In this document: positions 8,401-64,000 of the stretch, in pieces
How the letters are laid out: each line of letters opens with the position of its first letter
Position numbering within the stretch: the first letter of the stretch is position 1
Assembly (NCBI GenBank): GCA_003344405.1
Contig: NOWV01000012.1
Span: forward strand, 310,001-374,000
Length of the DNA: 64,000 nt
Reading direction: 5' to 3'
DNA from: Trichoplax sp. H2
Taxonomy: Eukaryota
Made by a program: the position numbers and the translations under genes
Notes under the pieces: model-generated
Told to the model about the DNA's origin: nothing
What the model saw: only the letters and a program-made list of their open reading frames with translations
Databases searched by the model: none

Positions 8401-11400
8401 AACGGTAGTACAGTACCGCAGTGGTCACAATCAATTATACTTAAGATGTAAGGAAAAGAATACGAAATAAAAGTATTGTAGTGACTAATCATTATAAACA
8501 TTATCCTAAATACTTAATAGACTTACCTGAAGCCAACCCACAGTACAGCATAATGCAAAGTCCCACATTAAGTCGTCGAACAAAATTATTCCAGATGAAA
8601 TTGCGTTATTTATAAAGCATATCATTGCTTCATTTAAGGAGACTATTCCAGTGGAAAGCTCATCGATATTGCTAGATACAATAAATTGCAATAAATTTAT
8701 CATATATGTATGTAGCCTCTTAAACGGCTATTTTATACTAAAATAAAGCATACCATTGAAATGCGAAGATGTCTAAATGATTATCTTTAAGAGCTCCCAG
8801 CATGCTTATTACATTTGCGATATAATCGACCATAGATGTTGGATTTTGATTTTGCTTTTGCATAGTTTTAAATACGCATGATATAACGTTTAAGTACGAG
8901 CCTATTTCTATATTTAATCACACAGAAGCGGCGATAGTAAAGATCATTTTAGAGCTACCGTTAAAACATAGATAAAACATACAGTGCATGCTAATAATAA
9001 TTAATAGAACGAGTACTTACGTAGCAACCAGTCTACGGATACCTCCATTTCCATGTTTAACATAGTTTTAACTTGATTAAAGCACATTTCTAATATCTTT
9101 GAATTCTGTGCCAAATCTAAATAAGATACAATAACTTGCAAAGTATGCATGTTACCCATGTTCATAAAGCCCCTGCACAAGCAAAAATACAAGTATCACA
9201 CAGCAGAAAATCACGTACAGGATTAGCAAATATTTTCTCAAAAATTTTCAGCTACTGATTTCGCACCTTGAAATATAATCAGAAGATACAATTTGATCGA
9301 TATGAGTAACAGGTATCCCTTTACGGAGCGAACCGCACAAATCTACATATACAAAAGGCCATATTCCTCCATTATCCATTGATCTATTTGGTAGAGATTA
9401 TAATTATTATGGCAAAACTTGAAGACGGTTACAATAATAAGGGGCAGCATTAAAATCATGATATTGCCTAAAATTACCTCTTGTAACATTCCGAAATGAG
9501 ATAGTCAGTATCGATTTCAGAAATTTCTGCAGTTAATACACTAAGATTGCTTTTAATAAGCTCTAACACCTTTTTAAGAAATGTTTCAGTTGAGATAATG
9601 GGGCTTTTTCTCACCTAAAGAGAAAATCATACCACATTAATAATCCTTTAAAATGACGTATGTTGTTCATGTATTTCGTAAAGTATACCAAAAATGTTTT
9701 ACATTTACGTCTACATAGAAGCATCATTAAATGTATTACCATATACGAATGTTCTGACTCCATTGATGTTATCGTAAGTTTGCATAATTCCTGACAGTAG
9801 ATAATATCTAGCAGGCAATCATTGCGCGATAAATAGTTATCATATATTGAAGTTAAAACTTTAGTGCTAGTTTCCATGGATTCAATAAAACTGCAATGTG
9901 CCAGAGAATGGTTTTCGGGCGTAGCCTGTTCGTCTAGTAACTCATAATCTTCGTCTGACGAATCTGTAATGTCTTCGATATATTCTGTCATGTCACTCTC
10001 TGAATCAGACAAGTTTGATTCATTATGGCATTTAACAACTCTCATACCGAGAGAAGAAACAAACAGCATCTCCTTAATGTAGGATGGAAAAGCCTTTTGA
10101 GGCTCATCAGCGAATATATAATAATCCTGTAACCACGATTCATCGAAGGAAATAATACCTTCGAAGTATGGGTAAATCAACCACTAAAACAATGGATGAA
10201 TACAATTTATGATTTCAAAATATTAAATTTGATATGGAGCAGAAAAGACATTTTTATTTGATATATAAAAATTCGTAACATTGCGGTATAGATATAGGGA
10301 ATATCTCATTAATTCAAATTTTTTGTACCTCTTTGTATGACCATCTGCATGCCTTTTCTCTTAATTTATCAAATTCTTCACGATTTCCAAGCAGAATCTT
10401 CATTATATTATCTTGCGGGTTTCTCAATACATTATCTGAGCCTGCATTAGTTTTTGTTTCAATTTCCAAGCACAATAACAGGATTGAACTGTTTACTAAA
10501 TTCTGAATCCTAATTAAGAAAACACCATAATACAAATTCTATAATTCAAATAGTGATTAAACGGTCAAACAATCGAATAATTCAGTAATTACCTGACAAA
10601 TTGTTGACATCCTTCGCTGTGAAGGCATTCCTTTAACCACATAGCGGCTTTTTCGATGAAAGATAGGTTAAAGCGCGTACTATATTGAAGTATTTCTTGT
10701 ATCTCTATTTGCACTTCAGCTGAAGGTTATGAAATGGAATTTAATCTGATTATTATATGTCCGTATCATTAAAATTTTATAGATTGAACTACATAAATTT
10801 TGTTATACTTTCTACGATAATCTAAACCCAATTTATCTACATACAGCAAGCTACGTGTTTAGTATACTATACATAACTTAGACAAGAATAAGTTAGAAAG
10901 GATTTACCGTCTCAATGATTCGATACCTTCAAATTTTATATCAATTGTTTACGTACTTGCAATTGGTTCCGTACAGCAGGTCAGTTTGAAGCATTCATAT
11001 AGTAAATCCTCCACAATCGCTGATAAAATTTTTCTGTCCTAAATACATACACATGTAATAATCACTTCATATTCTCCATGTGGTTAAGCTAACACATACA
11101 TGTATTCCGCAAAACTTCAAACTACAAATAAATGTCTTGCAACATTAACGAGCTGTCACACGGTTGAGATACTATTTTTAGCTGATGATGAACACAAACA
11201 GACCAAGTAATAAGTACTTTAACAGATGAAACAATACCTCAATTAATTTCAAATAATGTCTCAGTGTGCAAATCGTTGCAGCGATTTCTTTTGAACGACC
11301 ATAATTGGTGGTATCTCTTATAAAGTCGTGAAATTGTGAAAGAACGATTTCGATCGTATTTGATTGCAATATAAAATCTGAAATAAAAGAAGTAATTATC

Positions 11401-14400
11401 TCAACATAACTTGAAGAATTATTAAAATACACAAAATAGGCATCACAGAAACAATGCGACATTTTGAATAATTTACAAACCTTGATCTAACTTGTTGAAA
11501 CATTTTGTTAAGATTTTCCACTCATCACTACTGTCGTGATTTGGCCCATTAGAATTTGCACTACCGTACAAATTATCCACTAGACGCAATATAGACTTAT
11601 TGAAAATGGTACTTTTCAGCCATACTCTGTTGTTATTCTGAAGCACCTACAATAAAATTTGTCATAAGCAAGCAACAGGTCAAGCAAAAATATCATATTA
11701 AACATTGAAGAAATAAATAAACGTCTTTTACCTTACTAAGATACAGCTGTATCATGGAGACATTGTCCATATCCTATTGATACATAAAACCAATAAATTA
11801 TACATGCCGTAATTCTATATTAGAAGCAGTTTCTTCTTTTCGATGAATTGTATTTACACTACCTTCCATAAATCTTCCAGCACTTCTAGTTGTAAATCTT
11901 GAGGTAGAAGGTTTAAGAGTGAATCTGCTAACTGTGAAGCTGAACTTATAGCAATTTTAGCCTTATTCCTATCAATTGAAATGATGTCATGAGCCCAAGG
12001 TATAATATTTCCACGCATAAATGACGAAACATTCTGTGCCAATGTCTTCGTATCTTTTTCAATAGGATCGACATCGATTAATTTTTTGAGTATTTCGGTA
12101 GAAGCAAACTTATACGTTAATTTAGATAGAAATACCAAATGAGGGCACTTTCTGTTCGAAATAGTTTGACTGGTAATTTTGTGACATAGGGAAGAGGTTA
12201 ATTTATAACATTCTTGGCTCAGTAATTGTTGATATTTTGAAGATACTTGATTAGCTGATGGCTTATTATTCATTTCCCGATCGGAATAGTTGCGACTGCC
12301 ATCAGTAAATGAAACTGTTTTTCTTAACATTTTAGTCGCTGAGCCACCTTGTAGTCCACAAGTTAAAATCAGGTCTGCCAACCGTTGTAATGAGTGAAGA
12401 TAGTCCTATTCAATGGATATTTACATAGTTAATAAATTATCTACCGATTATTTTCTATCGGTAAATATTACTTTTTAAGTAATATTTACATCGATTACAA
12501 CTAATACCTCATTAATGCCTTGAAAAGATTCGTCGATTATGTCTCCACATATACACTCAAATTTATTCCAAAATTTAAACCACAAGGAGTTTTCCTTATC
12601 ACAAACAGCAGTTTCATCTTCTCTCTGATCAGAATGTATTTTTGCTAGTTTAAGAAGGAATTTATTCGTATTTGTGTACAAGCACGAATTAGCCAATAGT
12701 GGAGAATGAGCAATCAAAGAGACCTTCAGTAGTGGTAACATCTATGTGAATGATATAACCTCAGTTATTAACTAATCATGAATTGTATTAAAACATTTTA
12801 ACCATTAGAAATATCGATCATTTACCTGGTCAGTTAAAACGTATGATGCAACATCATCGAAAGTGCCTGTTGATGAATGCGAGGCTATAGTGTGGTAAAT
12901 ACACTCAACAAAAGCCGACACAATTGCTGAACACTCCGCTATACCTTGGCTAATGTGTAAATTATTCAACCTAATATCATTGAGTAATAAATCATCAGTC
13001 ACTTAATCTTAAAACAATTTAAAAGTTGAAACTTATGTCCCTGGTGATAATAATACTTTTATAAAAGGGAAGATTAGGTATGTCAATCGTTATGCACGTT
13101 CTATAATAAATGCTAACCCTTCCCGAATATTAGAAAAAAATAAGCGATAAAATTCAGTGCCACCACCAGTGACCTAAAAAGATAATTTGAAAGTAAATTT
13201 GATTTTTTACTAGCAATTAAAAAATAAAAAAGGCATATTTTTTAGAAATAGCATCATGCATTTAAGGACAGAAGTACATTGCAGTAGTTCACTTAAAGAG
13301 TAGGTTACGTGAATTTATCTTGCAGAAGTACTCAAGTATAGACTTTTCAATCAGTGCAAATTTCGCTAGGTCAATGAATTAACGATATAGCATTGAGTTT
13401 GTAATAAGCGGAAAAATCTGTCTGATACCTCAATAGGAATTTTACTTAGGAATGGCAGCAATGCTGGAAATATCACAGAAGCTGAACCATTTCCATTCGA
13501 ACGCAACAACTGCCATAATTTCGGCAAGACACTTTTCCTAGCACTCACATGATCCCAGCAGTCCTTAGTATTTAGGCATACGATTAATATTTACAATTGA
13601 AGGCTTTATTAACTTTTTAAGATTGCAACACATAACTGCTATATATTACCTGTACTTGAGTGACAACAAGTAAGATTGCATCCCATAAGGACCGGCAAAC
13701 TAATGGTTCTGTATCGTCAATAGAACCAAGTATTAGAGGACATGCTTTCGAGTTGCTGTTGCTTGAAGTAGATGGTAAATGCTGATAATAAATTGCCATC
13801 AATGTGAAAAATGCTGATCGAATCTGGAAATAGAAAAATAATTAATTTTGAAAACCTGCTTGATCAAGATGAAAAATAGAAACTAATAAAAACTATCATA
13901 GCATAAGAATTATTTCAAAATAAATAATAAATTTGCTGTACCATAGGTGAATCACTTTTTCCGAGTTTCCAAAATTTTGCTGTATCTAAAATTTCCGAAA
14001 AAGGGGCTGTATCGAAATCTTCGATATCATTAGGAGCCAAAGTATTAATTACTTGTCCTAATGCTAGTAACGATGATGCAACTACCCGTTGATACTTCGA
14101 TTCCATATCATCCGTAGAAATATTGCTAAATATATGTATAAAATAAACGGCGGAAATATTTATTCTGTCAATAATATCAGGGATATTGGTCAAAAACGCC
14201 AACTGTACCACTCGTGTAAATAACACATTTAAATCATAGAAACTCACCCTGTATTGCTTAATGTCGCAGGAGTATGGACAAAGAGATTCTCCTTGATGTG
14301 CTACAAAGGTGAATCAAATAAAGCGAAAGAACAAACATAAGTTAAATAGCATTAAAGCCGTTACAGCAGTTACATTACTAATCAATAAGTACGTCTTTTA

Positions 14401-17400
14401 CTATATAATACTTTAATACATTCATCAAATAGTATCATAATTAAATCTAAGTACGAAAAACTATAGATTGTTACCGTGATGGTCTCCTCTAAACAAAATT
14501 TCATAACTTCAGCTCTCTTTAATGGAGGAAAAGCAGTATCAAAAGCAACTTTTGCAGCTGTTGCAGCAGGAGCATAGCTATCATGATGACTACATAACCA
14601 ACAACCAATGATTGACTTAAGATGCGGAGCAAGTCGACGGCGCACACACTTAACAATACTTAGTAAGGCCTGCTGTGTTGCTTCTCGTACCTTTCTATCA
14701 ACATCCTATATTATTATTTGAGATAACATAAATCACATTATAAATTAAAGAAACATATTATGATCGTTATAAGTTTATTATAAAATACAACAAGCCTATG
14801 ACCGAGATTTGTAATGCTTTTCATAAGACTTTACAGAAAACAATAAAGATTTCAAGATATTCACTGCTTATATATACAGTAATATACGATGAGTACAGTA
14901 CAGCCTCTTGGATATACAGTACACTATCCTGCATTTTATCAGGGGAGATTGCAATTACAAATATATCTTACGTAAGCTAAACGGTTGTAACTTCTTGTCC
15001 AAGAATGCAGCAATCCGATGATTTCCTCAATCGGTTTATCCAAGCATAGCTCCGCTAATTCTTGTAATGCCTGAAATACAGCGAGTGACATATAGATATC
15101 AGTAATTTCTATTATCATGATGATAAATCAAATGTAGCCAACTACCAAAATCGATGCTACGAATAAAGACTATATCGAAAAAAATCATTTCAGCGCGCAG
15201 TAACCGTACAGTTAGAACCGCTAGGTGAATTTAGCAATTCATTATCCTCAATCAGATAATTGATGTCATACAGTAAGATTTTCAAAGTTTATGTATTGAA
15301 ATAAAATTAATTACTAAGTATCGTAGCTTGTGTAGGTTTTATGGATTTGCAAAGCAGATATCACCAATTGTAAACTGGCTATATCATCTACCACGGCTAA
15401 TTTGCAATAATTACTATTCTAAATAAACGACTACCAAGTCAGAAATTGTTAGCACAAAATGGCTAATTTGTAATTAATGTAGACTAATAATAATTCCAGT
15501 ATTTTTAATTAAATTCCATAACAAAGGTTAAGTTTTTCATCCATAGGTCTCTGGAACTATGTACGTAATCTTTCTAATAATAAATCTAGCGAGTCTGCTT
15601 TGGATGTTAGTATTAGTGAAGAATGTCTTTGCAATACTATTTAATAAACTGTCTAACTATAATCAAAATTAAGTTATACCTTCAGTCTCGTCAGAGAATC
15701 CTTCTTAGATAATTTCTTGATTATAATACGGAAATCGGGACTAATATTACTATCATCTTCATTAGGAGGCCCAGAGCCAGATACAGTTGCAAAGCCAATA
15801 AAACCAGTCGTATCGGCTCCTTTTCTAGCCAAATGATCCGCCGCTCTACCACTGTTGGAAGCCTACAACATTTAAATTGCAAAAATATTTTTCGATTACG
15901 CACTACGTCTATAATAAAATGGTAATTATGATATTTGCCATATACGTAAGTATATCATGTATAGTAGTTCTACAGTATCATTTACGTGTATAACTAACTG
16001 TCTATCTAAACGTCTACTGTATAAGAAAAGTAGCATAAATGATCACAGCAACTTATTATCATAATTTTCATTACACAGAACAGTATAATATCATGTACAG
16101 TAGTTGTACAGTATCATTTACGTGCGTAGCTGACTATCTATCTCAACGTCTGCTATGTACGAAAAGTAGGTGTAATAAATGCGTCTCACCATAACTATCC
16201 TAGTCAGATGGTATTTTCTAAAAGACTTTTATTACAAGGTTTTAGGAATAGTAGAGCAATAATTAATTACTACAAGAATCTAGTCTAAAATCTAAAGTAT
16301 TACGAGCTCAAAGCGAAGTGAAGTCTCTTCTTCCCTGTGAGCTCATCTCTGCAGTTCTTATAAACATTTCCTTAAATCCATTTATGACAACTTGATTAAT
16401 CTACAATCAGATATGAGTCATCAAATAAAATAGTTTTCTCTAACAGTACATCATTATTTTCTACAATCTGAATCATTCTACTTAAGATGGCACTATTCTT
16501 CTATTAACATCTAGGCCCTTTCTTCGAAGGGCATCTTAACTACAGCGTTTCTAGCTACATCAATCTTGTACCATAATTAGTCAACTGGCTACTATTAGTC
16601 ATCAATGATTTCTAATATAATAGTTAGCAATCATCTAATAATAGCTTCACGGTAATATCTATTCAAAGCAACCTAACTATATCAAATATAGCTATCCGTA
16701 TAATCAAATATGGGTGCATCACTACAGTAGGATAAATGATCACAGCAATTTATTATCATAATTTTCATTCTACTGTACAGTATAATAAAGTGATAATTAC
16801 GATATTTGCTGTAATATGTAGTTCTATAATAAGGGATTATCCATCTAAATGCCTGTTCTATCGCATATCAGAAAAATAATAACTGTAGTTATAGTCTGTA
16901 ACAACTGTGTCACTTCGAGTATTGTTACCCATGAACGAAAATTGTAGTACCAATATTTTTATGTGATTATTTTGAATCAAGCAAATTCACTTGTCATGCT
17001 ATTTATAATAACAATAGTGTATGAACTACTAGCAATGTATGATATAAAGCATTCATTGCAGGACGTTATCATGTAAAAGCCGCTATCACGAATGGGAAGC
17101 ATGGTGATCACACTACAAAATACAATATATAATATCAATTTACTTGGGGGGAACGAAAAATTTAGATCGCTTGTGATCTGTGCTGTGAGCGAGTCATGAC
17201 GATCACTCCATTTACAATAGTAAATACTGTAAGGACTCAGCAATTCAATACTTATTATTAGCATTGATTTGACGATCTAGTAACATAGATGGCTTAACCC
17301 GTAGGAATAATAATATTAGTGATGCTATATGTGCTTCATTACTAGCATTAGGGATTGTACTACAGTATAAGAGGATAACTTGTTGTGCTCGAGATCTCCA

Positions 17401-17502
17401 GTATGACACACAATTTGTACGATTGTGACCAAATTCTTCTTCAGTACGCTTGGTGCTTACCCGTAAATTTCCTTTCACTCTTTGCTTGTTTTTATTGCCC
17501 AT
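5467..17502 (-). CDS. LTN1: E3 ubiquitin ligase listerin (ribosome quality control), about 30 or more exons. First exon 17461-17502, last exon 5467-5526
   Basis: The N-terminus [22 protein letters not shown]...[18 protein letters not shown], ...[12 protein letters not shown] and the C-terminal [61 protein letters not shown] are hallmark listerin sequences. Confidence 0.96.
15953..16787. repeat. Tandem duplication of a ~137-bp unit in LTN1 intron 1; the second copy is split by a 556-bp insertion
   Basis: Copy 1 spans ~15953-16089 (tatcatgtatagtagttctacagtatcatttacgtg...aaaagtagcataaatgatcacagcaacttattatcataattttcatt). Copy 2 has its first half at ~16090-16170 and its second half resumes at ~16732 (ataaatgatcacagcaatttattatcataattttcatt). 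Confidence 0.85.
16171..16726. mobile_element. 556-bp insertion with TGTA...TACA ends and a 5-bp target-site duplication (GTAGG); solo-LTR-like
   Basis: gtagg(16166-16170)|tgtaataaatgcgtc ... gggtgcatcactaca|gtagg(16727-16731). It interrupts a duplicated unit whose other copy is uninterrupted. Confidence 0.65.
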
Positions 17503-17639
17503 AATTCTACCAATTTATTCGTTGCTATAACAGCTTTAGATTACAGCCACAATAACAGCATAAATATAATGTCCTCAATAATATATAATGATGATAATAA
17601 GGAAACTATATGATAGCAGTTGGATCTTAAATGGTCTTC

Positions 17640-17880: not shown

Positions 17881-19133
17881 AGTTGAAGAATTTGATAGAA
17901 CTTCGTTGTTTCTGACTCTAAAAGTAACAATCATGGATTGACAAATAATTCATTAACGATACTTATGTACGTGCAAATATCCCTGAAATTGTGTCACGTA
18001 GAGAATGACTTTGTACATTTACAATAAAATCTATCTACAGGTGTAAGCACAGTATGGTCTGTTGTCTGCTTACCTATGACCTGATTGGGGGTTGGCTCAG
18101 TTGACCCAATACCTGGCAATGAGTGCAATTAGCAAAAGTCATGTCATTACCACATGCTAATACGCATATGAAATATTGTCTACAGGGTGACATTTGGGGG
18201 AGGGGAGAGCGTTGCGGCTAACCGTGTGCTGGTGCTGTACTGTACAGTACATTTACAGGACAGGTTGAGTCCGAGAAATACAGTACTGTACTGTACACTG
18301 TACAATAATACTTAAGCATAAGCGCAGCTCCACCGCCTTCTTCCTCGTCTAGGTGAAATAGAAGCCTTCAAAATTGGTAATCCGATCAATTTTTTGGTTA
18401 TGTTGCAATTTTATGAACAGCAAATAATAACATTCAAGACTACAACAATATTTAAGTTTCATATTGAAATCTTGCAGTAATATACTGTACAGTAAACACA
18501 ATCTGCAGTCAGAGTAGAGCACTTTTATTGCATGATGAAATTGGATATTGCAGAAGTAATAACCATAGATAGCACTATTATTAAAATTCTTAATTTCGCT
18601 TTTGCAGTAAATAGAGCTGAGGTATAGGCTATCAACTGTACAACGTATACTGCATAATATAGTTTATAAGTATCAAGCCTCATGTTAGAACTAATTTTAC
18701 GTGCGATAGTAGCAAACGTGTGCTACAGACCAAGCACTGGAATACCGTCTTGAGATACATACTATATCTCCAATACTGCATGCTTCCAACAACTAATTCA
18801 TCTCGCAAACGTTTTACTCATATGCTGAAAATTTCATTTTATTATTTCTGTAAAATTGTAACTTACAACACTTCTAATTGCACATCTTGACCTCAGACTA
18901 TAGCTGTTTATTAATTGAATGAAAAATTAATGGTACGATTAGTGCTAGGATTAGTAATTTTCGTCTTAACAGCATGAACGAGGTACAAAATTATGAACTA
19001 ATTGATACACGGCCTACTGCATATTCGAATAGTGCTTAGTAATCCATAGCTAAACTAACTACAGAGTTGATATCAGTAACTATACATACATTGTAGTGAT
19101 TACTTAAGGACTTCAATTGATTACAGCTGCAGA

Positions 19134-19932
19134 ATGGATAACTATTCCAGTTCCTCTTTCGGTGGCGGTAGTATGACAAGCAGTCAAAAAGATCAGGTCT
19201 TACAGGAACTCAGAAGTCAGATCGCTCTGGCAAATGCTCAGGAATTGATGCAGGTAGTTATTAAAGTGTTGTTATACGAGCATATAAGATTGCGCTCCGC
19301 TTACACGCGCACATCGCCAGTAACAGTAAACCTTTAGCAACGATAAAGAATATTCAAGTGCTGTTTTGATAGATCAGATACTGTATGGTAATCTAATTCT
19401 CTTATCATGCATTACAGTATTCTATAAGACTGCCTTGTAAATTACCCTTTAATTGTTTATGACTCTGTTATTCGTATACTTTTATCTTTATTGTTCATAG
19501 AAAATGTCAGAAAAATGCTTTAAGAAGTGTATATATAAACCTGGAACCCAATTAGACAACTCTGAGCAGGTACAACAAAAGTATAACGTATCGACATGAA
19601 TCTAGCTTCCAATTAGTATCAGAATGCAAAACTAATTGATAATAATAGAATCATGGATATTTATTATTTTCAAATGATGTAGGTCATTTTTAACTTTACA
19701 TGCTATAAATCGAAGCAAATTACAGTTTGTTTCATCCCATTCATTTCTTCGTAAATGGTACAACTATTTACGGTATTAACTCCGTATCGCTACAGCTAAT
19801 TAAACACCGTGTTTTCTATCCTAGAAATGTCTTGCCATGTGTATGGATCGATATATGGATGCGTGGAATACAGTTTCACGTACATATAATGCACGATTAT
19901 CAAGAGAACATTCAAGTGGCGGCCTTCAATAG
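19134..19932 (+). CDS. TIMM13: Mitochondrial import inner membrane translocase subunit Tim13. Exons 19134-19253, 19501-19569, 19825-19932
   Basis: Spliced product ...[63 protein letters not shown] shows the twin CX3C motif and the Tim13 consensus. Confidence 0.96.
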
Positions 19933-21403: not shown

Positions 21404-24400
21404 TTAACATGGATAAACCTTCTCTCGAATTCGATCTACGTCAACTTGCATAGTAACTCTCAATTTTTTTTCTTCGTCTATCTCTTTTCTTAATGAATTC
21501 ACAGTTAACTCAAAATTTTTCCTCATCTGCTCTATTATATCCTGTAAACTCTTGATTTCAGCCTTCAACGCGGTAACTTCCTCCTGTTTCGCTTTAATAT
21601 CACCCGTGAATATATTCTCAGATGTTTTGGCAAGTACGGGTTCTTTAATGGGTTGAGGAACTGAATAGCCTGAAGTACTTGAGGTACTTGAGGATAGTTT
21701 CGGTTTTCTTGGTGGCAATGTTTGTGATTTAATCTTTGCTTCCGTATTTGAAGTATCAACTTGCGGTGATCTCATTGGTTTCTAGTAGAAACATGTAAAG
21801 AAGTAAAGAATGTAGTTATCTTGGCTAATTTTCATAGTTCTGTACCGAATATCTATGTCGAGAAAGTCTGATAAAGTATTATGGCTAAAAGATCAAATCT
21901 TATCAGCATCTGCAAATACCTGATAAACCATTGGCAGTAACGATAGCTGAAATATACTTAAATATTGATGCTATAATTTCGAAACGCACCTTCATAAACT
22001 TTGACCATGGAGGAAGATCTTGCTTACAATCACGATCATTTTCTTTCAATTTTTCAGAGGATTTTTCAACGCCGCTCAAAATAGGTCCTTCAGACTTTTC
22101 AGGCTTTTCACTTTCAGGCTTTTCAGGCTTTTCAGGCTTTCCAGGCTTTCCAGGCTTTCCAGGCTTTCCAGGCTTTTCGGGCTTTTCGAGCTTCTCAGGC
22201 TTCTCAGAATCAGGTATAGACTTCTTAGACTTACTTGTTTCATCTTTCATACCATCGAAAACATCCTAGATATGGTATCAATTCAAATAGTACTTCAATT
22301 AGAAACAGTTTTAGCGCTTTACAGCAAATGATAAAGTAAGGTTAGTAAGTAGTAAGTGCCAACATAAAGATTTATTTTAAAATTCTACGTTACTGCGATC
22401 TATACCGCTCTCCTTAAATTTCATGCATTTTAAATATATCTTACTAACATCGGTAACATCATTGTGAAGACTGCTTCTCGAAGGAGGAGTAGATTTTGCT
22501 TTCGTAGGTCTACTTCTTGTCAGATTTGGCAATACGCTTATTTCATTCACATCATCAAAAGTGATATTGCCTAAGAATGATACATAGGCAGTATTTAGAT
22601 AGTTATAACTTTAAAAATGTATAATTCCTGTACAATAGTATCAGTAATACTGTACTGCCAAAGCTAATTGAATAACTTTCAAATAATGCACTATTATGAT
22701 TACTGCAAGCATTGCAGCGCTTTTCCTTGGTAAGACAAGAGAACAATTAATCATCACCTTTATCTGAAGGAGGAGCCGGTAATGGAGTCCGAATAATATC
22801 TGATTGCTTGTATTCCTAAAGATAAAATCTCATAATTATTCTACTGTTCTATTAAATTTATACTTCTCAGATTGCAATGTTATGTTACACCTCAAGACGT
22901 AAATATTGCAAAATTTTGAGGATTTTTTAAGACGTATTCATAGGTTCACAGTTACAAAATGACGCACATTATCAGCCGCTTCCTCTACGATGACCTTTAT
23001 AAAATTATTCGGGAAAAGGCCTTCCTTTCCATTTAATGATCCCCTCCACCATCCCTCCATAGCATCTTCGTCAAGAACGGTAATAATATCACCTTCAGAA
23101 ATGTCTAGCTCGTCTTCTCGTTCAGCTTTATAGTCGTACAGGCACTGGCATTCTTTCTTCTTCGATTTATCTACTATAAAAAGACATACCACTATTAATA
23201 TTCCATAACCATTTAACACAATTTAAACAGGAAAGATTTCTATTATGTAGAAAGCTAACAATACATGATCAAATATTTAGTACGTCCAATTCTTAATAAC
23301 ATTATAAGAAAATTATTTACCGGGAGGCCTACTCGGCACAACAGGCGTAGCATCCTAGAAATTAAATTTACAGTTAATTCAATTTAGAATAATTATAATA
23401 GATCAACAGTAATAACATAGTCGTTATAGCTGATACTCCTAGTAGTGCGTGCTATCTATAACATAGAAATAAACCACAGATTTAAATATCTAAATAAAGC
23501 ATAAACAGTTGCACAGTATTATAAACAAAGTACTACGACCGGTTATTGTTACTGGATTTGATTTTACTTGTAAACAAAAGAGCGATCTAACGCTATACAC
23601 ACAGCTCACACATTCTAGCAATAATATAATATTTTGTTCATATCACACATATATTATAAGGACGGTATCGTACAATAACTAATATTGATTAGGATTTCTT
23701 AATACATTGATATGTACTATACAGTATATACTCGTACAGCACATTAATAGTATAAAGAAATATAATGCTGTAGTGAATACCTTCCTATCTAGCTCTTCTG
23801 CCCTCTGCTGTACTTTCTGTAGCAATGGACTACCCTTGGAGTCAGCAAAAATATTGCCAAAACCTGGAGTATTCAATTTACTTTTAGCTAAAATATTAAA
23901 GAAAAATTTAAAAAATCAACCCAAAGACCGTTATTTACTGTTTTGGTAGCATAAAAATTTATTATACAGATCTTGAAGAGAGATCATACATTAATTAAAG
24001 CTTCATGCTAATTTTTAATGTAAACACTATGTGTACATATGTGTACAGAATACTCCAAATGTAAAGAAACAAGTAATTATAATCAAAAAGTTTGGCACAA
24101 CTAATATAAACATCTCCATCAAACTGGAAATCATTATAAGGATAGACTTTGAAATAACTATTTCTGTATTGCTTGAATCCTTTGGATGTAATCGGTGTAT
24201 TACACATTGGTGAAATACGCATACATTTACAGCAGTCCATAAGAAAACTTACGGGGTTTTGCTGGTGGAGGAGGTGCAGGTGCTCGATCATGCTTTTTTA
24301 CGAAGGTAGCTGGAAAAAGTCCAATTTTACCTCGGAGTCTTCCGGTACACCAGTCTTCCGAGTCCCATTTGACAACACTTATAATGTCACCTTCCCTAAA

Positions 24401-24462
24401 TGAAATCTCATCGTCATCTTTAGCGTCATGGTCGTACTGTGCCTTGACTAAATCGCCAATAG
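21404..24462 (-). CDS. CIN85/CD2AP (SH3KBP1)-like adaptor: SH3 domains, Pro-rich region, capping-protein-interaction-like motif and C-terminal coiled coil; first exon not located
   Basis: SH3 exon 24253-24462 (VKAQYDHDAKDDDEISFREGDII...WCTGRLRGKIGLFPATFV); linker PGFGNIF; SH3 at ~22967-23172 (CLYDYKAEREDELDISEGDII...GWWRGSLNGKEGLFPNNFI); LPNLTRSRPTKAK; C-terminal LRKEIDEEKKLRVTMQVDVDRI coiled coil typical of the family. Confidence 0.85.
22093..22206 (-). repeat. Coding 9-bp tandem repeat giving (E/G)KP tripeptides
   Basis: On the plus strand, aggcttttc/aggctttcc is repeated about 11 times; the translation is EKPEKLEKPEKPGKPGKPGKPGKPEKPEKPESEKPEK. Confidence 0.9.
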
Positions 24463-25319
24463 CTAAAACAAGTAGAAAACCATTACTTGATAATTAAATA
24501 CGTACACAACTATCTTGATGAGTAGCTTAATGCAGAAAATATAAAATTAACATATTGCGTTTGGGCTTGTTACGAGACAAGTTATTAAGGAGAATGTAGT
24601 AAAAGTGCGTTTAAGACTAATTTTATTGTTAAAGCTACTAAAGTACGTACATATGCACACATCAAAATAATTTACATTATTACATATCAATATGAGAATG
24701 CCTACTCGTATATAGTTAACCTTTTAATCTTTTAATAAGCAAATCTATATCTATTGCTACAGTACATCTTCTGTCATACATACTCATAACAAATCATAAT
24801 TAGTTATCACCAATGCAATAGTTAACAATAATATAGACTCAATTGCTATAAGCGACAGTGCTACAACACAAAATTGCGAAATGTATCCTTTCGACTTAAA
24901 AAAATAAAAAATAATAATACAATCAAGGTTTACTATCTCCTAGCTTATGCTGCAAACTATTTCTAGGCTCGGCACAACCCAGCCATTTTAAACTTTGCTT
25001 TGTTTCTTCAAAAGTTGCTTTATTAAAATTAATCCTCGAATAATACTGTAGGTTGAAAACTGTTTTAGTACTGTACAGTATAATGCGGCACTCAGATTGC
25101 CATGACACCATGACCATATTAACCAAAATACCTAGAAGCAACACAATTCTGATCCTACCATCACATCAATACAGTGCCCATAATGCACGTAGAACTGTGA
25201 ATTACTAGAAATGCTACGGTCAATAGATGTGCGTATGTACTAGGCAAAACAAGGCACAGTGCTTTTCCTGACAAGATATGTTGAGTGTAGACTATATAAA
25301 GCGCACAATGCATCAGTAG

Positions 25320-48029: not shown

Positions 48030-49259
48030 ATGCATACAAGCGATCATCCCAGCGACATTACTAATCATGAGGATGATGATTTCATTACAGTAACCAGTAC
48101 GATAAATTATAATTATTTAATATCGAATACTAGCAAGAATTTCACTTGCCAAGATATTACGGCCGGTGCTGGCACTATGGCTTTATCTGTACTTCTTGTC
48201 ATAATTACCGCTACCATTGGAAATACTGTAGTCGTAATTGTTATATGTAAACATAAAAGGTTACAAACTGCTACTAATTATTTTATCGTCAATCTAGCCA
48301 TTGTAGATATTTTAACAGCAATACTTAAACTACCATTTTATATAGTTGCATTTCTTTGCAATGGTTGGCCACTTCATGATTCATTATGTAAATTTACGGC
48401 AATCTTAAATTCTCTATTTCATATTCAATCAACCTATTCCGTTGCTTTTATCGCAATTGTTAGATACATTGTCTTATTCCATCATTCTAAATGTAGATAT
48501 TTATGTAATAAAACATTCATAGTCATTATTATTATAGTTTCATGGATAGTATGTATAGCATTATGTAGTTTACCTCTAATGGGATGGGGAACAATTGTCT
48601 ACGACTACCTGGATTTTTCATGTCAACAGGACTGGTCCTCCTATCCTGATTATACTCTTACTGCTGTTGTTATTGGTTGGACTGTTCCATTTATTATCAT
48701 GGTTGCCTGTTATACTAAGATTTCATTCGGTGTTTCACGCTATATGAAAAATTTACGGGCAGCAGGTATTACGATCGACTTCAGCCATCCTCAACACAAT
48801 ATAACATCGACGACAACGAGTACAACTTTAACTTATCATCGTTTACAATTAGCCCACAACAGCGTAATATCTCGCTCACAACTGAAGGAAAATATAATTG
48901 AAAGTAAATTAACTAAATCATCGTTTATAGTTTGCTGTACATTTATTATTTGCTATTTACCATATAGCATTGTCGTTATGATTATAGAACCTTTTACCGG
49001 TTATCGATTTTCACAATTAATACACTTTTTACTTCTATGGTTAAAGTTTATTAATAGTTCTATTAATCCTGCAATCTATTCCATTTTTGATCCACAATTT
49101 AGAAAAGGTAGCATTTCATTATATCAAACATTTAGGAAAATATGTTGTCATTGTATGGCTTTTCAAGCTCTACCAATTAACCGATCTCTACGAATATATC
49201 CCAACAATAATACTATTCAAAATATAAGGCAGCCTATTGACAGGAGTTTTCACACTTAA
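48030..49259 (+). CDS. Intronless class A (rhodopsin-family) GPCR, opsin-like (placopsin-type)
   Basis: Seven hydrophobic segments; TM1 GN; TNYFIVNLAIVD; TM3 Cys and AIVRY (DRY variant); ECL2 PLMGWG...FSCQQDW; TM6 FIICYLPY; TM7 NPAIY followed by DPQFRK. The first ATG is at 48030. Confidence 0.93.
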   Translation: MHTSDHPSDITNHEDDDFITVTSTINYNYLISNTSKNFTCQDITAGAGTMALSVLLVIITATIGNTVVVIVICKHKRLQTATNYFIVNLAIVDILTAILKLPFYIVAFLCNGWPLHDSLCKFTAILNSLFHIQSTYSVAFIAIVRYIVLFHHSKCRYLCNKTFIVIIIIVSWIVCIALCSLPLMGWGTIVYDYLDFSCQQDWSSYPDYTLTAVVIGWTVPFIIMVACYTKISFGVSRYMKNLRAAGITIDFSHPQHNITSTTTSTTLTYHRLQLAHNSVISRSQLKENIIESKLTKSSFIVCCTFIICYLPYSIVVMIIEPFTGYRFSQLIHFLLLWLKFINSSINPAIYSIFDPQFRKGSISLYQTFRKICCHCMAFQALPINRSLRIYPNNNTIQNIRQPIDRSFHT

Positions 49260-51639: not shown

Positions 51640-53920
51640 TTATAAGTGAAAGATTTTTAATCCGTTCATGTTTGTTATTACAATTTTCTCTAGGGCAGTT
51701 TTTGCATCACAATCTTGAAAGTATGCTAAGGAATCCAACAATTTTGATTTGTAGGTTTCGTAAACAGTTTTAACTTCGTCAAGCACCAATTTTTGATGTT
51801 TATAAAACTAAGACATTAAATAAGAAATCAAATCGTTGTTCAGAAGTTATAAAAGCTCTGTCAATTATATATAGTAGTATTTATCACGAAGTCAGTTACT
51901 TGAATATTTGACGAGAATAACGTAGCTTTATCTTCTGAATTTTGCAAGGCAAGGAGTGCCGGTAAACTTGTATAGTCTATCTGACTTCCAGTATCATCCA
52001 ATTGAAGTGCACTTAATTCTAAGGATAACTGTCAAATAAGAGTAATCGTTATAGAACGGTATGGATTTAAGCAAGTAATTTCTAATTAACACTCGTACAT
52101 TCAATTACGAAATTGTTTGGAAATAGGATAACCTGTTGAGTATAAGCCAAGTTCTGTCCAAAATTGTTAGCGACCATTTGCGCTTCTTCACTATGATTAA
52201 CTAACTTTAGAGCACATTGACAACTCTTTGATAATAAACTACCCTTTCTTAATAATGTTCGTTGCTCCCATAAATTGACATAGTCCATAATATCCGACTT
52301 AATTACATCTTGAATCGTAGAACAAAGAAATTCACCTTCCATCATTTCACTTATGGCTTCGGACATGAGTTGTACAACCTGCGAATAGAAGGAGAAAAAA
52401 TAATATTTCATTGATATTGTAACTAACTTATAGCACATAGATTTCTGTAAAATAATAAGATATGACAAAATATATATTAGTATTTACGTAAAAGCATCGT
52501 TCACTATATCAATACAGTAGCTAGCTTGAATAACAAATATCTTCGACTGCAGACTTAGAGCTACCTTGATCGATTGATCGATCGGTTGCTGCGGCATGCG
52601 ATCAAAGCAGAGATTTATAAATCATGTATGTAATGATGACAGTATTTATGATATAGAAATTGCTATATTTAAAAAAATGTTACAATATATTAACAGTCTA
52701 AAAAAGTGATACTAGGTGATCCGATGAAACATAAGAAAAAAATTTCGAATCCGTAGAAATTTTCAACATTATGTAATATCGATCAGTTAATCTACAACCT
52801 GTGTATTTTCTAACTTAGCCAATCCATTGCTGGCTTTGGCCAACAAGAAATCACCAATTAAAACAGCCATTTTATTGCCTAGCTGCAATTCTTTGTCTTC
52901 TTCGGAAGCAATCGGTTCAGGTAAATTAACTACTCCAGTGTGAATTATTTGTGCCATGCGAATTATTTCAGTAATTTCTGCTAGTGATCGCTGAGTTGGA
53001 TAGATTCCATCGACGCTTTGTTCTTCAATCATTTGACTTTTACCAGCAGCTTTAGCAATGAGCAAGACAATTAAGGAATATTTAGCTTTGTTTTCGTTAT
53101 AACTGTTATTGATTAATCCCCTATCAAATCATAACCGTTTATATAACATTAGTTGCCATAAAGGTTTCTATAGCAGGAGTATAGTAGACTGTATATAGTA
53201 AATTAGACATTAATTGATTAGTTCACTTTAAATTGGAGATTCCATGCATTGTGTCAATGGTATGACTCAAAGTGTAATAGTAATCTTAGCAGAGATGCTT
53301 GATGGGCATGATCTTTAACCCTGGACATTTAGTACCGTAGTATGCTGTTGATACACGTGTTATAGAGAGGCTTAACTTACGAGTACCTCAATCTTCTAAT
53401 TGATAGCATACGCGTATTCACTATACAACTGTATATCATTTTATTGCGTAGCAAGCTTAAAGATTCGCTACCTAAACAAGTCTAGATATCGACTCGTGTC
53501 TATCCAGGGACTACAGTACCGTATGGTGTGATGATCGTGTCCAATTATTACCATTACGATAAGCTTACAACTCTTTTATTAACACAAACTGATTGACTGA
53601 ATAGTTACACAAACTTCTAGAAGGGTTTTTACTGACCTAATAGTATGCATTAATGGATGACGGCTACCGAGTAATTTCTTCATATGCACTGCAACATTGG
53701 ATACTTCGTCTGTGAGTAAATGTCGAAAGCTAAGGAAAGACGTAGGATAACCAACGATTTTTTCAGCTTCAGAAACCGCTTTAGCTTCATGTGTCTTGGG
53801 ATATGCAGAAAATGTACCATAAAATTGTCCATGGACATTATATGTTAGGTTAATGACAGTCTTCTTTGGGTGATGATTCCATTGCCGCCATAATAATCGT
53901 AAAATAGCATTACTTATCAT
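51640..53920 (-). CDS. PDSS2: Decaprenyl-diphosphate synthase subunit 2 (CoQ side chain). Exons 53637-53920, 52799-53120, ~52134-52378, ~51899-52030, 51640-~51808
   Basis: AVSEAEKIVGYPTSFLSFRHLLTDEVSNVAVHMKKLLGSRHPL; GIYPTQRSLAEITEII...IIHTGVVNL (lacks the DDxxD motif, as in PDSS2/DLP1); GNKMAVLIGDFLLAKASNGLA; GSLLSKSCQCAL. Confidence 0.94.
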
Positions 53921-54587
53921 GATGATTAATGTTGAGCAGCAAGTAGCTGCAGATCTTGGCGAAGAGTTGAGGATGATGAATGGATGAGCTCAGCAACTAG
54001 AGCTCAATCTGAGCTGCAGACTGCAGTCATGGTGATGAAATGTTGCGTACTGTACGCGCGATACTTGTAGTTGAATCTATCTGTCGCTTGCGTTCCCATA
54101 GTGCATTATAGGCATAAGGCACCTGTTTGCGTTATGATTATTACAGACCACAGTACATATTGTACAGTGTACAGTACATCATGTACAGTACAGTACTGTA
54201 CCAGAAGTCGTGGATCTGATTCGAAGAAGAAATGGAGTCCATTTTGCAATGAAACGAAAGAAATCAATGAACTAAAAATCCAGTAAAATCTTTCATAGCT
54301 TCAATTTTTACCTTGTAACAGTTACACTAGATTGATGTAGATATTCTCTAGTGACATTCTTCAAAGACTCTTGACCCACATACTGTATAACAACGTGTTC
54401 ATATTTTTGTATCAGGCATTTATTAATAGATTAGCGATAGTAGCTAGCATACAGTGATAGCACTTGTACCCTGGTCGCAGTGTCCAGAATTAATATAATT
54501 TGCTAATTTGGTCATTGAAAAGATACTAAAGGCTGTCTCTTTAATAATCTTGCTAATATCTATTTTATCCAAGGCTATCTTAGCAGA

Positions 54588-59723: not shown

Positions 59724-62700
59724 CTACTTAATATCGCAAAGCAATGCTACGCCACGAAGTGTCCAATGATCAGGGGGTTGACTTGTTTTTAAATATAAAG
59801 AGAAGATATAATTTAAATCTGTACGTCGTTTCTTTCTGTAAACGGGACATTCGTACAGGCGATTATTTTCGCGAGCTGTTGTAACATTGACAGCATAAAT
59901 ATGGACAACCGGTAAAGGAGTGTATAGGACTTTAGGTGAGGGTTCTGTAAGCCTACAAGCTCTTCTCTCCCAACCAGCTCCTTCAAGGTATAGTCCATGA
60001 ACATAGACACCTTCCGCTGGCGGTGTAGCAATATCATCATTATAATGTTTTGTAACATCGTTTGCTAGTACCACGTTGTCTAAAGCCCAACCTTTATGAG
60101 CTCGAGTAACTTCTTGGCGCATTGCAGTCAAAAAGCCTTGTGGATTAAAGAAGCTAGTCATGTGGAAAACATTAGGACGCCCTTCAAAGAGCCATGTATG
60201 AAATTGAGCATTTCTCTCAAGTAATTCAGTAAACCAAAAGCCTAAAGTAGAAGATTCCCAAGAGACTTTTCTCCAAGAAACTGGCACCCTAGCATCATAC
60301 ATATTATCTAAAGCATCGCGTAGTATCTCACTCATAATGATGGTGCCATCAATCGCTAATTTAAGATCAGTTAATGTCTGCCTTACAGCAGAAATAACAC
60401 ATTGCATACGATCAATCTCTTGACGTAAGAAGATATTCATAGGTGATAGCAAGCCCATTTTCTGTAATCGATCTTTAACTTCATGGGCTATATAATCGGG
60501 GGGTAATTTCTCTAACATATCCATTGCTAACTTTAATACTACGCTCTCGCGTGTTTCACCGCCGCCAGATGCGCTATCTTTCGGTTGGATGTTGACAATT
60601 GTATCTAAAATATCGGTAGCAGTTTTAGTCTGGTAAGTGATATCAGCATTGGGATGCAGGCCAAAGGCTTCCGGCGAATCTACTAAGGGTAGACTATCAA
60701 TAGCTGTGCGGTAATCCTCTATGGTTTTACATTTAGGGATTCGATAACCCTCATAAAATCTGAAATTATCGGCAAACATGGCATCACTAAACCAAGTACG
60801 TGCAAAAGTATTTATCAATCGTTTGTCAAAATCATCTGTTACACGGCCGCCATATTGGACTTCTCCAATCATATATCTTACTGTATTCCATGATACTCCT
60901 TTCTTAATATCCATATCGTCTAAATGATTTTGCACAAATTGGACTGTTGCAGTAAGATCGGCTTCGTTAAATTCGTAAGGGATATTCCAACCTAATGGGC
61001 CAAACTTTCTCCTTTCTTGTACAACTGTGTGCAAGAATGCCACACCATAAAGCATTGGCTTCCATTGTGGCATGTTAGTAATATCTAATTGATCCTGAGT
61101 AATATTACCATACGTACGTTTAAGACCTGCCTTTGCACCTTGAGGTGGTTCATTCGTAAATTTAATTGAATGCTGTAAGATATTAATGGGAAATTGCGGG
61201 TGAACATCAGTTGTCATCCAAACTCTAAAGCTGTCATCAGCATTTTCTGCGTTTAATATGGTCTCTAGCAATTCTTCCATAAAATTAAGACCTAAATGGC
61301 AATTTTGTAGCATTAACCATCCTCCTTCAGACATTGTTTGAGAGAGTAAGCGACGAGCGTGTATTTCTTGACCTTGGCCCATAGAAATTGCTCGACATTC
61401 TAGTTTCATTTTCTTGGCTAAAGCCTCAATTGATGCTGTAGGATCGGAACCCATAGATAAGAAGCATATCATTGGTGTGCGAGTATTACTTTCTTCCCAC
61501 ATATTTTCTAAATCTAAGATTACTCCTTCGGCATATCTTGAACCAATCGATTCAATAATATAATGTCTCGCTTGTGGTATAGTACGATCAGGACACCAAC
61601 ATCGCACCAATAATAATTTCCGAAGTGTATCAAGAGAGGTACTATAACCATCAGGGATGATAGCTTCTTCAGGTGCGTCTTCATCATACCAACTTTTCCA
61701 ACCACGATCATTTCTCGAAATTTGACCTAAGATTTGAGAAAACTGAGGTAGTTTACTCAACTCAACCAGATTAAGCCAGGTAATGTCGGGTATCCATTTC
61801 TTAGGTTTAGGATCAACGTTGTTTAAGTCAAGGGCAGCACCACCTTTAATGAGTACTTGAAATTCGTCTGATTTTACACGGCCCTGCTGTAAATCAATCT
61901 TTAAAGCCAGTAACAACGTAAATAGGAATTTATGATTCTCATATAATCCTCGAACTGTATATTTGAATACTGCAAATGTTAGATAATCGATAACATTTTG
62001 TATACGTTTAGCTGGAATTGGCGATTTTTGTGAGCGTACCATAGAGAGATCAAACAATTTTAAAAACTGCGCTAGTGATGTTTGATACATGACATTTACC
62101 ATTGACATTTCTACAATTAAGAAATATAAGATGCTTCCACGTGTTGCTACTGGGCGATACTCCTCACGTGCAATATTAATTTTAGTTTCTGTTTCTGCTG
62201 CTACAGCTAATTTATCGCGTACTTCTTCAGCTGTTTTCTTAGTATTAGCCAAGACAGCGATTAATGATTCATCATCGACCAAAGATCCTTCAGTGCTGGT
62301 TAGCCGTAGTAAAAGGTTATCTTCCAAATCCTTTATTTTACGCCTATTAAACGTAACTTCTTCGATCAATTTTGTACGCTCCAGTTCTAATTCCTAAATA
62401 TCATCCGAATAGAAAGTGAATGTGTATATCAAAATCGTGCAATATTGATTAAAAGCTTAACATATTCATATTCGTGTACGCGTATACATTTATACAATAT
62501 GTGCTAGCTATATATTTGTATAAATTAAGTATTGGTGTATTCAGAGTGATTCTGTACCTTCTTCTCAGTTTGTATAACACGACCAAGCAATTGTCCTTCT
62601 AAGCCTTTCATCGTAACAGTGAAATCGATAATAGATGTTCTAGCACTTATTTCGGGGGTATATGCTGGATTGGGTAACTTGGTGGTAATATATAATCGGA

Positions 62701-64000
62701 AACCTTCCAAGATATCAATTTCTTTATCACCGACCTTGACTTTTAATGTTTTACCGATTTTGATAAAGTTCTTTTCTAAGACATTATCCAAGGCTGGATC
62801 GAGTTCTTCGTTAATGTCCTCAATCAATAATGGCCGACCTAAGGATAAACAATCTTCTAAATGCGCTCTGAAGTACTTATGATTTAATGAGGTCACTTGT
62901 AACTCATTGGGTGCTTCTCTATTTTTAATCCAAACTTTGCCTTGGCCCTGTGGATCGATAAGCAAGGGAAATCGTGACGCTTTGGTAGCTATTAGACCAT
63001 TCTCGATGGATAATTCATCATTTGGTAAACCTTGTAGATTCCACTCACCAATTGTAGCACTATCTGTTAGCATAGTTACTAAATCGAGATCTTCGGTGAA
63101 TGGGATTTTTTGACGTCTCATTTCTTTCTTCCATACATTAGATAAGTAAGAGCGAAATTCTTGGTTAAATGGACCAGAGTAGGATAAGAAACCGGTAGCT
63201 AATAAAACATCGCCAACAAGTCTGTTAGTTTGTTCTTCAAACATTTTACTCTGTTCTGTCCATCGTATCTTTTCTCCACCTAATCCATCAATTAAAGTTG
63301 TAGCATTATTCATTTTGCGCCTACAAGTTTCTGCATCATTAATTAGATTCTGCTTTTCAGTTACAGCTGCTTCATATTGCTTTTGAACGGCATCTAATTC
63401 AGCTTGCTTTTCGTCGAACTGATTCTGAGCCTTAGTTAAATTTCCATTCGCTTGATTTAATCTCGCTTCTTGCACCATTAGGTTAGCTTTGAGTGGCAAT
63501 ACTTCTTTATTAACAGCATAAAATGCACACATTGCCTTAGTCCACGATAGCAAACCTGCAACATCACCACAAGCTTTCTTAGCTGTATCTATATTGTAAT
63601 CTTCGTTTGCAAAATAGATTTCCAATAATTCTACAGTTTCATCATTAATGGAATCTTTCTGAAATTGAACCAAGGATTGTAAAAATCCACTATTATTCAT
63701 CATTCTTAATGCTTCACCCCATGATGGCTTAATAGTCGGCTTTTCTGGATCAGGTTGAGTAGGATCAAGCCGTTTATTAAATAGTAATAAGACACAATCC
63801 ATAATTCTCATAATTAAATGAGGCGGCTTGGCTAATTTACGTACGGTAGCAATATGCTGTGCTTTAATAGTTTGCAATGCGGCTTCAGCTTCTTCGAGCG
63901 CTGGTTTAGCTGCTTCAAGGCGTTCCTCAGCTGCAGCTTTGTCGACAGCAATTTCATCTACAATAGCTTGTGCTTTCTCTTTTACTTTCAGAACTTGTTG
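59724..64000 (-). CDS. DNAH5: Axonemal outer-arm dynein heavy chain (DNAH5/DNAH8 group), 3' part: stalk, AAA5, AAA6, C-terminus. Exons >64000-62558 and 62393-59724
   Basis: [17 protein letters not shown] (microtubule-binding domain), [50 protein letters not shown] and the terminal [14 protein letters not shown]. The DNAH5 and DNAH8 paralogues cannot be distinguished here. Confidence 0.95.

Follow-up and report, generated by a model that had tools for sequence, protein, structure and literature searches.

A divergent placozoan class A receptor, best explained as a relative of melatonin receptors, with a lysine at position 7.42

The stretch of DNA analyzed here (hereafter the window), 64,000 nucleotides of a contig of Trichoplax sp. 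H2, contains an intronless gene for a class A GPCR. The best explanation of this protein is a melatonin-receptor-related GPCR, a divergent and early-branching relative of a placozoan receptor expansion, and not an opsin. Its TM7 carries a lysine, Lys339, at position 7.42, one residue before the site that corresponds to the retinal-binding K296 of rhodopsin. The reading that we prefer, and hold with modest confidence, is that of an orphan class A chemoreceptor in which Lys339 would pair with an anionic group of the ligand. The preliminary description, which proposed a displaced-lysine retinylidene receptor, had given binding of an anionic ligand as its fallback, and this fallback is now the best reading, as a prediction. 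The gene is thus likely to be one more orphan placozoan GPCR, with a rare pocket lysine that has been retained.

Gene, protein, and residue registers

The gene is a single open reading frame that encodes 409 aa and ends in a stop codon (Table 1). The protein matched the Pfam model 7tm_1 over its entire length (positions 1 to 260 of 260) and scored 150 bits (cut-off, 30.5). The cysteines C120 (TM3) and C198 (ECL2) were invariant in the 124 rows of the alignment that served as input for AlphaFold2, and an NPxxY motif is also present, which identifies the protein as a class A GPCR. The AlphaFold2 model (mean pLDDT, 85.5; pTM, 0.82) showed seven helices and a helix 8, with TM7 as one unbroken helix (residues 329 to 353) and ECL2 as a beta-hairpin with strands at residues 189 to 192 and 197 to 200.

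Registers were taken by comparison with the bovine rhodopsin chain, and Ballesteros-Weinstein labels were set from conserved anchors. Two registers given in the preliminary description held. An Asp had been placed at the E181 counterion position, and Asp192 indeed lies six residues before Cys198, as E181 does before its own ECL2 Cys. A lysine had been placed one residue off K296, and Lys339 (codon AAG, positions 49044-49046) lies seven residues before the Asn of NPxxY, while Phe340, six residues before it, takes the place of K296. Downstream of NPxxY, helix 8 reads DPQFR.

Table 1. Features of the receptor gene, in positions of the 64,000-nucleotide window
Feature	Position	Strand	Basis or remark
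Class A (7tm_1) GPCR, protein P0001	48030..49259	+	ORF, Pfam, AlphaFold2 model
Lys100 (2.57, rhodopsin G90 register)	48327..48329	+	basic residue common to family
Asn127 (3.32) and His131 (3.36), rhodopsin A117 and G121 registers	48408..48422	+	no aminergic Asp3.32
VRY replacing D/ERY motif	48459..48467	+	translation, family comparison
ECL2 beta-hairpin with Asp192, Asp195, and disulfide Cys198	48582..48635	+	codons, AlphaFold2 strands
Asp192 (E181 register)	48603-48605	+	codon GAC
Asp195, acid three residues before ECL2 Cys, family-conserved	48612-48614	+	family comparison
Tyr309 (6.48), rhodopsin W265 register, Trp toggle replaced	48954..48956	+	residue counts
Lys339 (7.42, rhodopsin A295) and Phe340 (7.43, rhodopsin K296)	49044..49049	+	rhodopsin register
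Non-opsin TM7 end: Asn342 (7.45), Ser343, Ile345 (7.48), NPAIY	49053..49079	+	residue counts
QFR, helix 8	49095..49103	+	not opsin-specific (20/168 rows)

How far each mark exceeds background

The comparison set was made of the query, its best matches among 1.84 billion representatives, and 30 matches from its own genome, the highest-ranking of 124. Rows longer than 700 aa and locus ORFs shorter than 290 aa were left out, and the 175 rows that remained include about eight duplicate or near-duplicate pairs. Of the 162 rows in which TM7 could be read, the query alone has a lysine at 7.42. At the E181 register, Asp was the most frequent residue (25 of 175 rows, including the query), and it is also present in GPR161, which aligns there without gaps. 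The helix 8 motif xxQFR, described as opsin-like, is present in the protein but is not specific to opsins: out of 168 rows, 19 besides the query share QFR, and none of them is an opsin. Most rows (143 of 162) carry an Asn at 7.45. Lys339 is therefore the only unusual one of the three opsin-like marks, since the Asp at the E181 register and QFR are common in non-opsins, and this lysine lies off register in a non-opsin pocket. The term “opsin-like” was given up: the ECL2 Asp and QFR do not discriminate, the residues of the retinal site are not those of opsins, and three trees place the receptor elsewhere.

Phylogenetic placement

A phylogeny with opsins, placopsins, and melatonin receptors, suggested as a check in the preliminary description, grouped the receptor with a melatonin-related placozoan expansion and with neither opsins nor placopsins. 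In the FastTree phylogeny of 172 rows, it was found with this expansion and with orphan receptors mainly from echinoderms, beside the melatonin receptors, and IQ-TREE gave the same placement under LG+G4 (59 rows; SH-aLRT, 93). Under the C20 model (37 rows), the query, the expansion, and the mainly echinoderm group were united at 95/86 and joined the melatonin receptors at 82/83, the direct sister relation of the query to the expansion being weak (81/34). All three ML trees left the receptor outside the opsin clade (99/96 in the C20 tree), and the aminergic clade of the C20 tree (100/99) excluded it as well. The AU test rejected the tree in which it was forced into the placopsin clade (P = 0.022). 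Trees in which it was forced with opsins were not rejected (P = 0.379 and P = 0.184) under a thin opsin sampling, which amounted to 3 to 6 rows from two subfamilies (melanopsin-like and Opn5/Opn8). A non-opsin origin of the receptor is thus favored by the trees, short of proof. The best identities of the receptor were 32 to 34%.

Two labels were discarded along the way. Our first guess, a GPR161 orthologue, was dropped, because the trees place GPR161 elsewhere. An orphan clade of 13 rows had been labeled moody/GPR84-like; there was no GPR84 match at E ≤ 1e−22, which leaves this label unsupported, and the three of its members that are singled out are echinoderm or unnamed.

Paralogues of the receptor within the genome share 99.7 to 100% of their residues with proteins named as Trichoplax. 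One member of the expansion, L019 (G000:C641:3740-7285), is identical to XP_002114830, which is annotated as a melatonin receptor, and the query is 26% identical to it. L019 is probably the tryptamine receptor Tadh170, because its F156, the Pro and Tyr of its ECL2, and its Gly3.33 fit the description of that receptor (bioRxiv 2025.04.18.649542). Since L019 fits Tadh170, the comparison suggests that the expansion corresponds to the group that the same source calls “melatoninergic” in placozoans. That work screened 56 receptors and places 18 receptors in the melatonin-related group of T. adhaerens, with Tadh153, Tadh165, Tadh168, and Tadh170 as trace-amine receptors, in a melatonin clade without the DRY Asp (bioRxiv 2025.04.18.649542).

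Pocket and family signature residues

Residue groups were taken from the FastTree phylogeny of 172 rows, which included the signature columns, so that the following counts are partly circular. Position 2.57 was basic in 27 of the 29 expansion rows (Arg in 21, Lys in 6, and Gln in the other 2), and besides the query, only 1 of 142 other rows had Lys or Arg there. A bulky residue (Phe, Tyr, or His) occupied 3.36 in 27 of 29 rows, as His131 does in the query. Neither D, E, nor N was present at 3.49 in any of the 29 rows, and the query reads VRY. Position 6.48 was not Trp in 29 of 29, whereas Trp was found there in all 6 opsin rows and in 93 of 97 ungrouped rows. The query shares each of these four marks (non-acid DRY, basic 2.57, bulky 3.36, and non-Trp 6.48) with the expansion. 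It also has the ECL2 acid three residues before the Cys, which is present in 27 of 29 expansion rows (Glu in 26) and is fairly common elsewhere too, and a GW-type hairpin of equal length. The query differs from the expansion by Lys7.42, where the 29 rows have V, L, I, A, or T and none has Lys, by Trp7.40 and Phe7.43, by Gln200 instead of the ECL2 Pro (26 of 29 rows), and by Ser128 at 3.33, a position at which Gly varies within the expansion. It is also the sole clear GPCR match in the 64-kb window, whereas many members of the expansion cluster on one contig (C563).

Within the expansion, 7.43 is Asn in 18 of 29 rows. The combination of Arg or Lys at 2.57, the ECL2 Glu, and Asn7.43 may be a route to amine binding without Asp3.32; the accessible part of the source on these receptors (bioRxiv 2025.04.18.649542) makes no mention of it. 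The members of the expansion in this genome include L002, L003, L007-L012, L014-L017, L019-L026, and L030, many of them on G000:C563, C441, and C199.

The comparison with opsins gave a different picture. One study takes K7.43 as the defining mark of opsins and did not recover placopsins as their sister group (PMC9368030). All six opsin rows have Gly3.32, Gly or Ser at 3.36, Glu181, and Trp6.48, and the five with a TM7 have Ala7.42, Lys7.43, Ser7.45, and mostly Tyr7.48; the query matches none of these residues exactly. Like the opsins compared (bovine rhodopsin, melanopsin, and Opn5/Opn8), the receptor has a class A fold, a gap-free ECL2 bearing an acid at 181, a Tyr at position 268, and QFR in helix 8. 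Unlike them, it lacks K296, replaced by Phe340, has Asp at 181, where all six opsin rows show Glu, and carries Asn127, His131, and Tyr309 where opsins have small residues at 3.32 and 3.36 and Trp6.48; Asn7.45 and Ile7.48 also set it apart. Readable Opn5/Opn8 rows all have FAK followed by no Asn (118 of 118). The two counterion sites hold Thr at 113 and Asp at 181, the latter being common in non-opsins. Nor are the aminergic residues Asp3.32, Trp6.48, and Tyr7.43 present, their places being taken by Asn127, Tyr309, and Phe340.

The placopsins (XP_002112437, XP_002112438, and XP_002113363) resemble the query in being placozoan intronless class A receptors without K296 and with an ECL2 of similar length. 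Unlike the query, their clade has D/E3.49, Cys3.36, Trp6.48, Ala7.42, and Met7.43. XP_002112437 corresponds to L013, and XP_002113363 was not identified in the sequence set used. The contig of L013 (G000:C191) also carries L006, a member of the placopsin clade with an open frame of 262 aa that ends before TM6, perhaps because of an intron, a frameshift, or an assembly error.

Structural matches and position 7.42 in solved receptors

The PDB sequence search gave 757 matches, and no opsin was found among the best 60, which were adrenergic, GPR161/GPR101, melatonin, serotonin, and similar receptors. GPR161 and GPR101, among the best of these matches (E = 5e−26), share with the query a gap-free ECL2, Asp at the E181 register, and Phe7.43; unlike the query, GPR161 keeps DRY and Trp6.48, has Ser7.42, and is found in another part of the trees. 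The top structural match was melatonin MT1 (Z, 32.4; rmsd, 2.3; 280 residues aligned). Since jumping-spider rhodopsin (Z, 31.6) lies within 1 Z unit of it, the predicted fold does not settle the placement. Foldseek ranked many class A receptors about equally, and the Atlas search returned generic class A neighbors with mixed names that do not discriminate either.

By analogy with solved receptors, Lys339 should line the pocket floor together with His131, Asn127, Tyr309, and Tyr312. In rhodopsin, G121 has a steric role in the retinal pocket. Because Phe340 and His131 occupy the places of K296 and G121, a pocket for 11-cis retinal is unlikely in this receptor. In adenosine receptors, the residue at 7.42 forms a hydrogen bond with the ribose of the agonist, and at A3 agonist binding dropped most with S7.42A (bioRxiv 2025.01.12.632629). 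Gln7.42 of histamine H4R connects the ligand with Trp6.48, which is pushed aside by the bulk of this Gln (PMC11946611). A literature search for Lys or Arg at 7.42, which the usual superscript notation would escape, found nothing, and one for relocated-lysine mutants returned G90K passages only.

A second lysine, Lys100, which was absent from the earlier account, lies seven residues after Asp2.50, as G90 does in rhodopsin; we assume that the TM2 bulge of rhodopsin leaves this register intact. The sequence resembles the engineered G90K/K296G rhodopsin (Devine et al. 2013, via PMC13466386 and PMC3879442) in having a lysine at the G90 register and no K296. The engineered protein retains the whole retinal pocket with Gly at 296, whereas the query has Phe at 296 and changes at 117, 121, and 265. 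Light activation of transducin by G90K/K296G bovine rhodopsin is nearly that of the wild type (review PMC13466386). Because that protein works, the Lys100 register would be a better precedent for a Schiff base than 7.42. Accessible parts of PMC3879442 and PMC13466386 place the relocation sites that work in helix 2 and ECL2 and do not name 295. The role of Lys100 looks electrostatic rather than that of a Schiff base, because among the 29 expansion rows Arg at 2.57 (21 rows, including the probable Tadh170) outnumbers Lys (6 rows).

Orthologue and retention of Lys339

Among 24 listed sequencing runs from seven studies, 20 contain the stretch or part of it, and four of the runs were examined. Run X23 has a 1134-base contig that begins at 48510 and shows 16 differences in 82 bases and 39 in 238, the segment 48592-48867 being diverged and of the same length. 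We take this contig as a diverged orthologue of the receptor gene, because the nearest paralogue in the own genome is just 32% identical at the protein level. In codons 293 to 345 (TM6 to TM7), 26 of 53 codons differ, 20 of them synonymously, and 6 of 53 residues are changed, counting only differences listed away from the contig ends. The codon of Lys339 is AAA instead of AAG, and the lysine is retained. Conservation of the lysine, one of the checks put forward earlier, is thus borne out in one diverged orthologue by a synonymous change. Since most changes are synonymous and AAG is replaced by AAA, the gene is under purifying selection, and Lys339 is neither an assembly error nor a recent change. 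For a special importance of Lys339 this retention is modest evidence, because only 6 of 53 residues have changed and a lysine would be kept about 89% of the time anyway.

Other searches for orthologues were negative within their scope. The word-based protein search returned the query itself and six distant matches only, none of 28 candidates among shorter proteins was an orthologue, and no metagenome stretch out of 52 was confirmed. The 90% cluster of the receptor protein has one member. HMMER against the 50% representatives, where orthologues above 50% are hidden in the cluster of the receptor itself, gave no match above 37% identity. A 182-base contig came from run X19, which is on record as RNA, and further contigs came from two runs guessed to be RNA; the gene is intronless, so these contigs may derive from DNA.

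Candidate roles of Lys339

Judged from solved receptors, position 7.42 should lie on the pocket floor beside 3.36, 6.48, and 6.51, where it could link a ligand to the 6.48 switch, and the smaller Tyr6.48 may leave room for the long lysine side chain. Lys339, His131, and Asn127 would ion-pair noncovalently with the carboxylate or phosphate of a small ligand, and binding at Lys339 would be coupled to TM6 movement and G-protein activation. [quoted passage not shown] Our leading guess is an aromatic amino acid or an aromatic acid, because the probable sibling of the receptor detects tryptamine. Under such a mechanism, deorphanization would lead to acidic ligands in a family known so far for trace amines only. 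Lys339 also offers a single-residue control for function (K339A).

A more doubtful reading, but the strongest competitor, is that Lys339 is a built-in cation that pairs with Asp93 (2.50) or with Asp192 or Asp195 and sets the basal activity of a receptor that is orphan or self-activated. The residues of the sodium site (Asp2.50, Ser3.39, Asn7.45, and Ser7.46) are all present in the receptor, and its ECL2 shows a gap-free alignment with the loop of GPR161, a receptor with ECL2-driven constitutive activity. The DRY Asp is missing, which is said to raise basal activity (bioRxiv 2025.04.18.649542). The paralogues, however, function without Lys7.42, with V, L, I, A, or T in all 29 rows, and in solved receptors 7.42 contacts the ligand (bioRxiv 2025.01.12.632629, PMC11946611).

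It is improbable that the protein is a receptor for tryptamine, tyramine, or phenethylamine in which the ECL2 acids hold the amine and Lys339 is unprotonated or peripheral. Four placozoan receptors of the melatonin clade do respond to trace amines (bioRxiv 2025.04.18.649542), the probable responder L019 has Arg2.57, so that a basic 2.57 is compatible with amines, and Asp195 stands at the acidic ECL2 position of the family. Yet a protonated amine should be repelled by the additional Lys and the His at the base of the pocket, the query has Ser3.33 where Gly3.33 is reported for the four amine-responsive receptors of this clade, and 14 of the 18 clade members are orphans (bioRxiv 2025.04.18.649542).

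A natural displaced-lysine retinylidene pigment, with the Schiff base at Lys339 or Lys100 and Asp192 as counterion, is very improbable. It can appeal to the working G90K/K296G rhodopsin (PMC13466386) with Lys100 in the same register, to the opsin-length ECL2 hairpin with its acid at 181, to the AU tests that leave an opsin grouping unrejected (P = 0.379 and 0.184), to some light response reported for Trichoplax (bioRxiv 2025.02.09.637293), and to a motif scan of the genome that found no GPCR with K7.43. These points are outweighed by the replacement of K296, G121, A117, and W265 by Phe340, His131, Asn127, and Tyr309, by a TM7 motif that is not that of opsins (FAK without a following Asn in 118 of 118 readable Opn5/Opn8 rows), and by ML trees that exclude the receptor from the opsin clade (99/96). 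Moreover, 2.57 is Arg, which is incapable of forming a Schiff base, in 21 of 29 relatives, position 295 is unnamed among the working relocation sites in the accessible text of PMC3879442 and PMC13466386, and one placopsin is itself a tryptamine receptor (bioRxiv 2025.04.18.649542). We give equally little credence to a retinal light receptor, or a covalent sensor of another aldehyde, that arose outside the opsins in the melatonin-related lineage and would use a Schiff base at Lys339 or Lys100 with Asp192 as counterion. Were the pigment real, it would be an opsin-independent retinal photoreceptor in a phylum believed to have no true opsins, and nature would have used a lysine relocation so far achieved by engineering alone.

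Genome scans and neighboring observations

Opsins with K7.43 were sought with the DNA pattern K-x5-NP-hydrophobic-hydrophobic-Y, which overlooks TM7s divided by introns as well as motifs like NPAIY. It gave 66 matches against 74 in the control; the 40 without an in-frame stop were inspected, the other 26 being left out by eye, and none of the 40 was in a GPCR frame. The genome-wide pattern for Lys7.42 gave 21 matches against 15 in the control, which is background level, and the only ones in GPCR frames were the query gene and one broken, distant GPCR. The latter (L048:1359-2600, minus strand; G000:C763) is a class A receptor gene with weak similarity to the family; its reading frame changes past TM2, and an in-frame stop interrupts it ahead of TM6. 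Two further GPCR copies, L004 (G000:C563:313431-317234) and L043:3-958, have internal stops or a frame change and are likely pseudogenes. An intron-blind search of the genome for a carotenoid oxygenase/RPE65 (PF03055) gave no candidate, and the literature search was likewise empty. In the database melanopsin-like protein P0021, which has no TM7, TM2 to TM5 are internally duplicated, probably through a gene-model error.

The nearest gene downstream of the receptor lies on the minus strand at 52085-53989 of the window, where exons resemble what we take to be a polyprenyl diphosphate synthase subunit (PDSS2-like). On the same strand, the long exons at 59724-64000 presumably correspond to the 3′ part of an axonemal dynein heavy chain, and those at 5614-17514 to listerin, a RING E3 ligase. 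A putative small Tim chaperone is found at 19080-19334 (plus strand), and the segment at 21407-24493 (minus strand), with a lysine/proline/glutamate repeat, presumably encodes a CD2AP-type SH3 adaptor.
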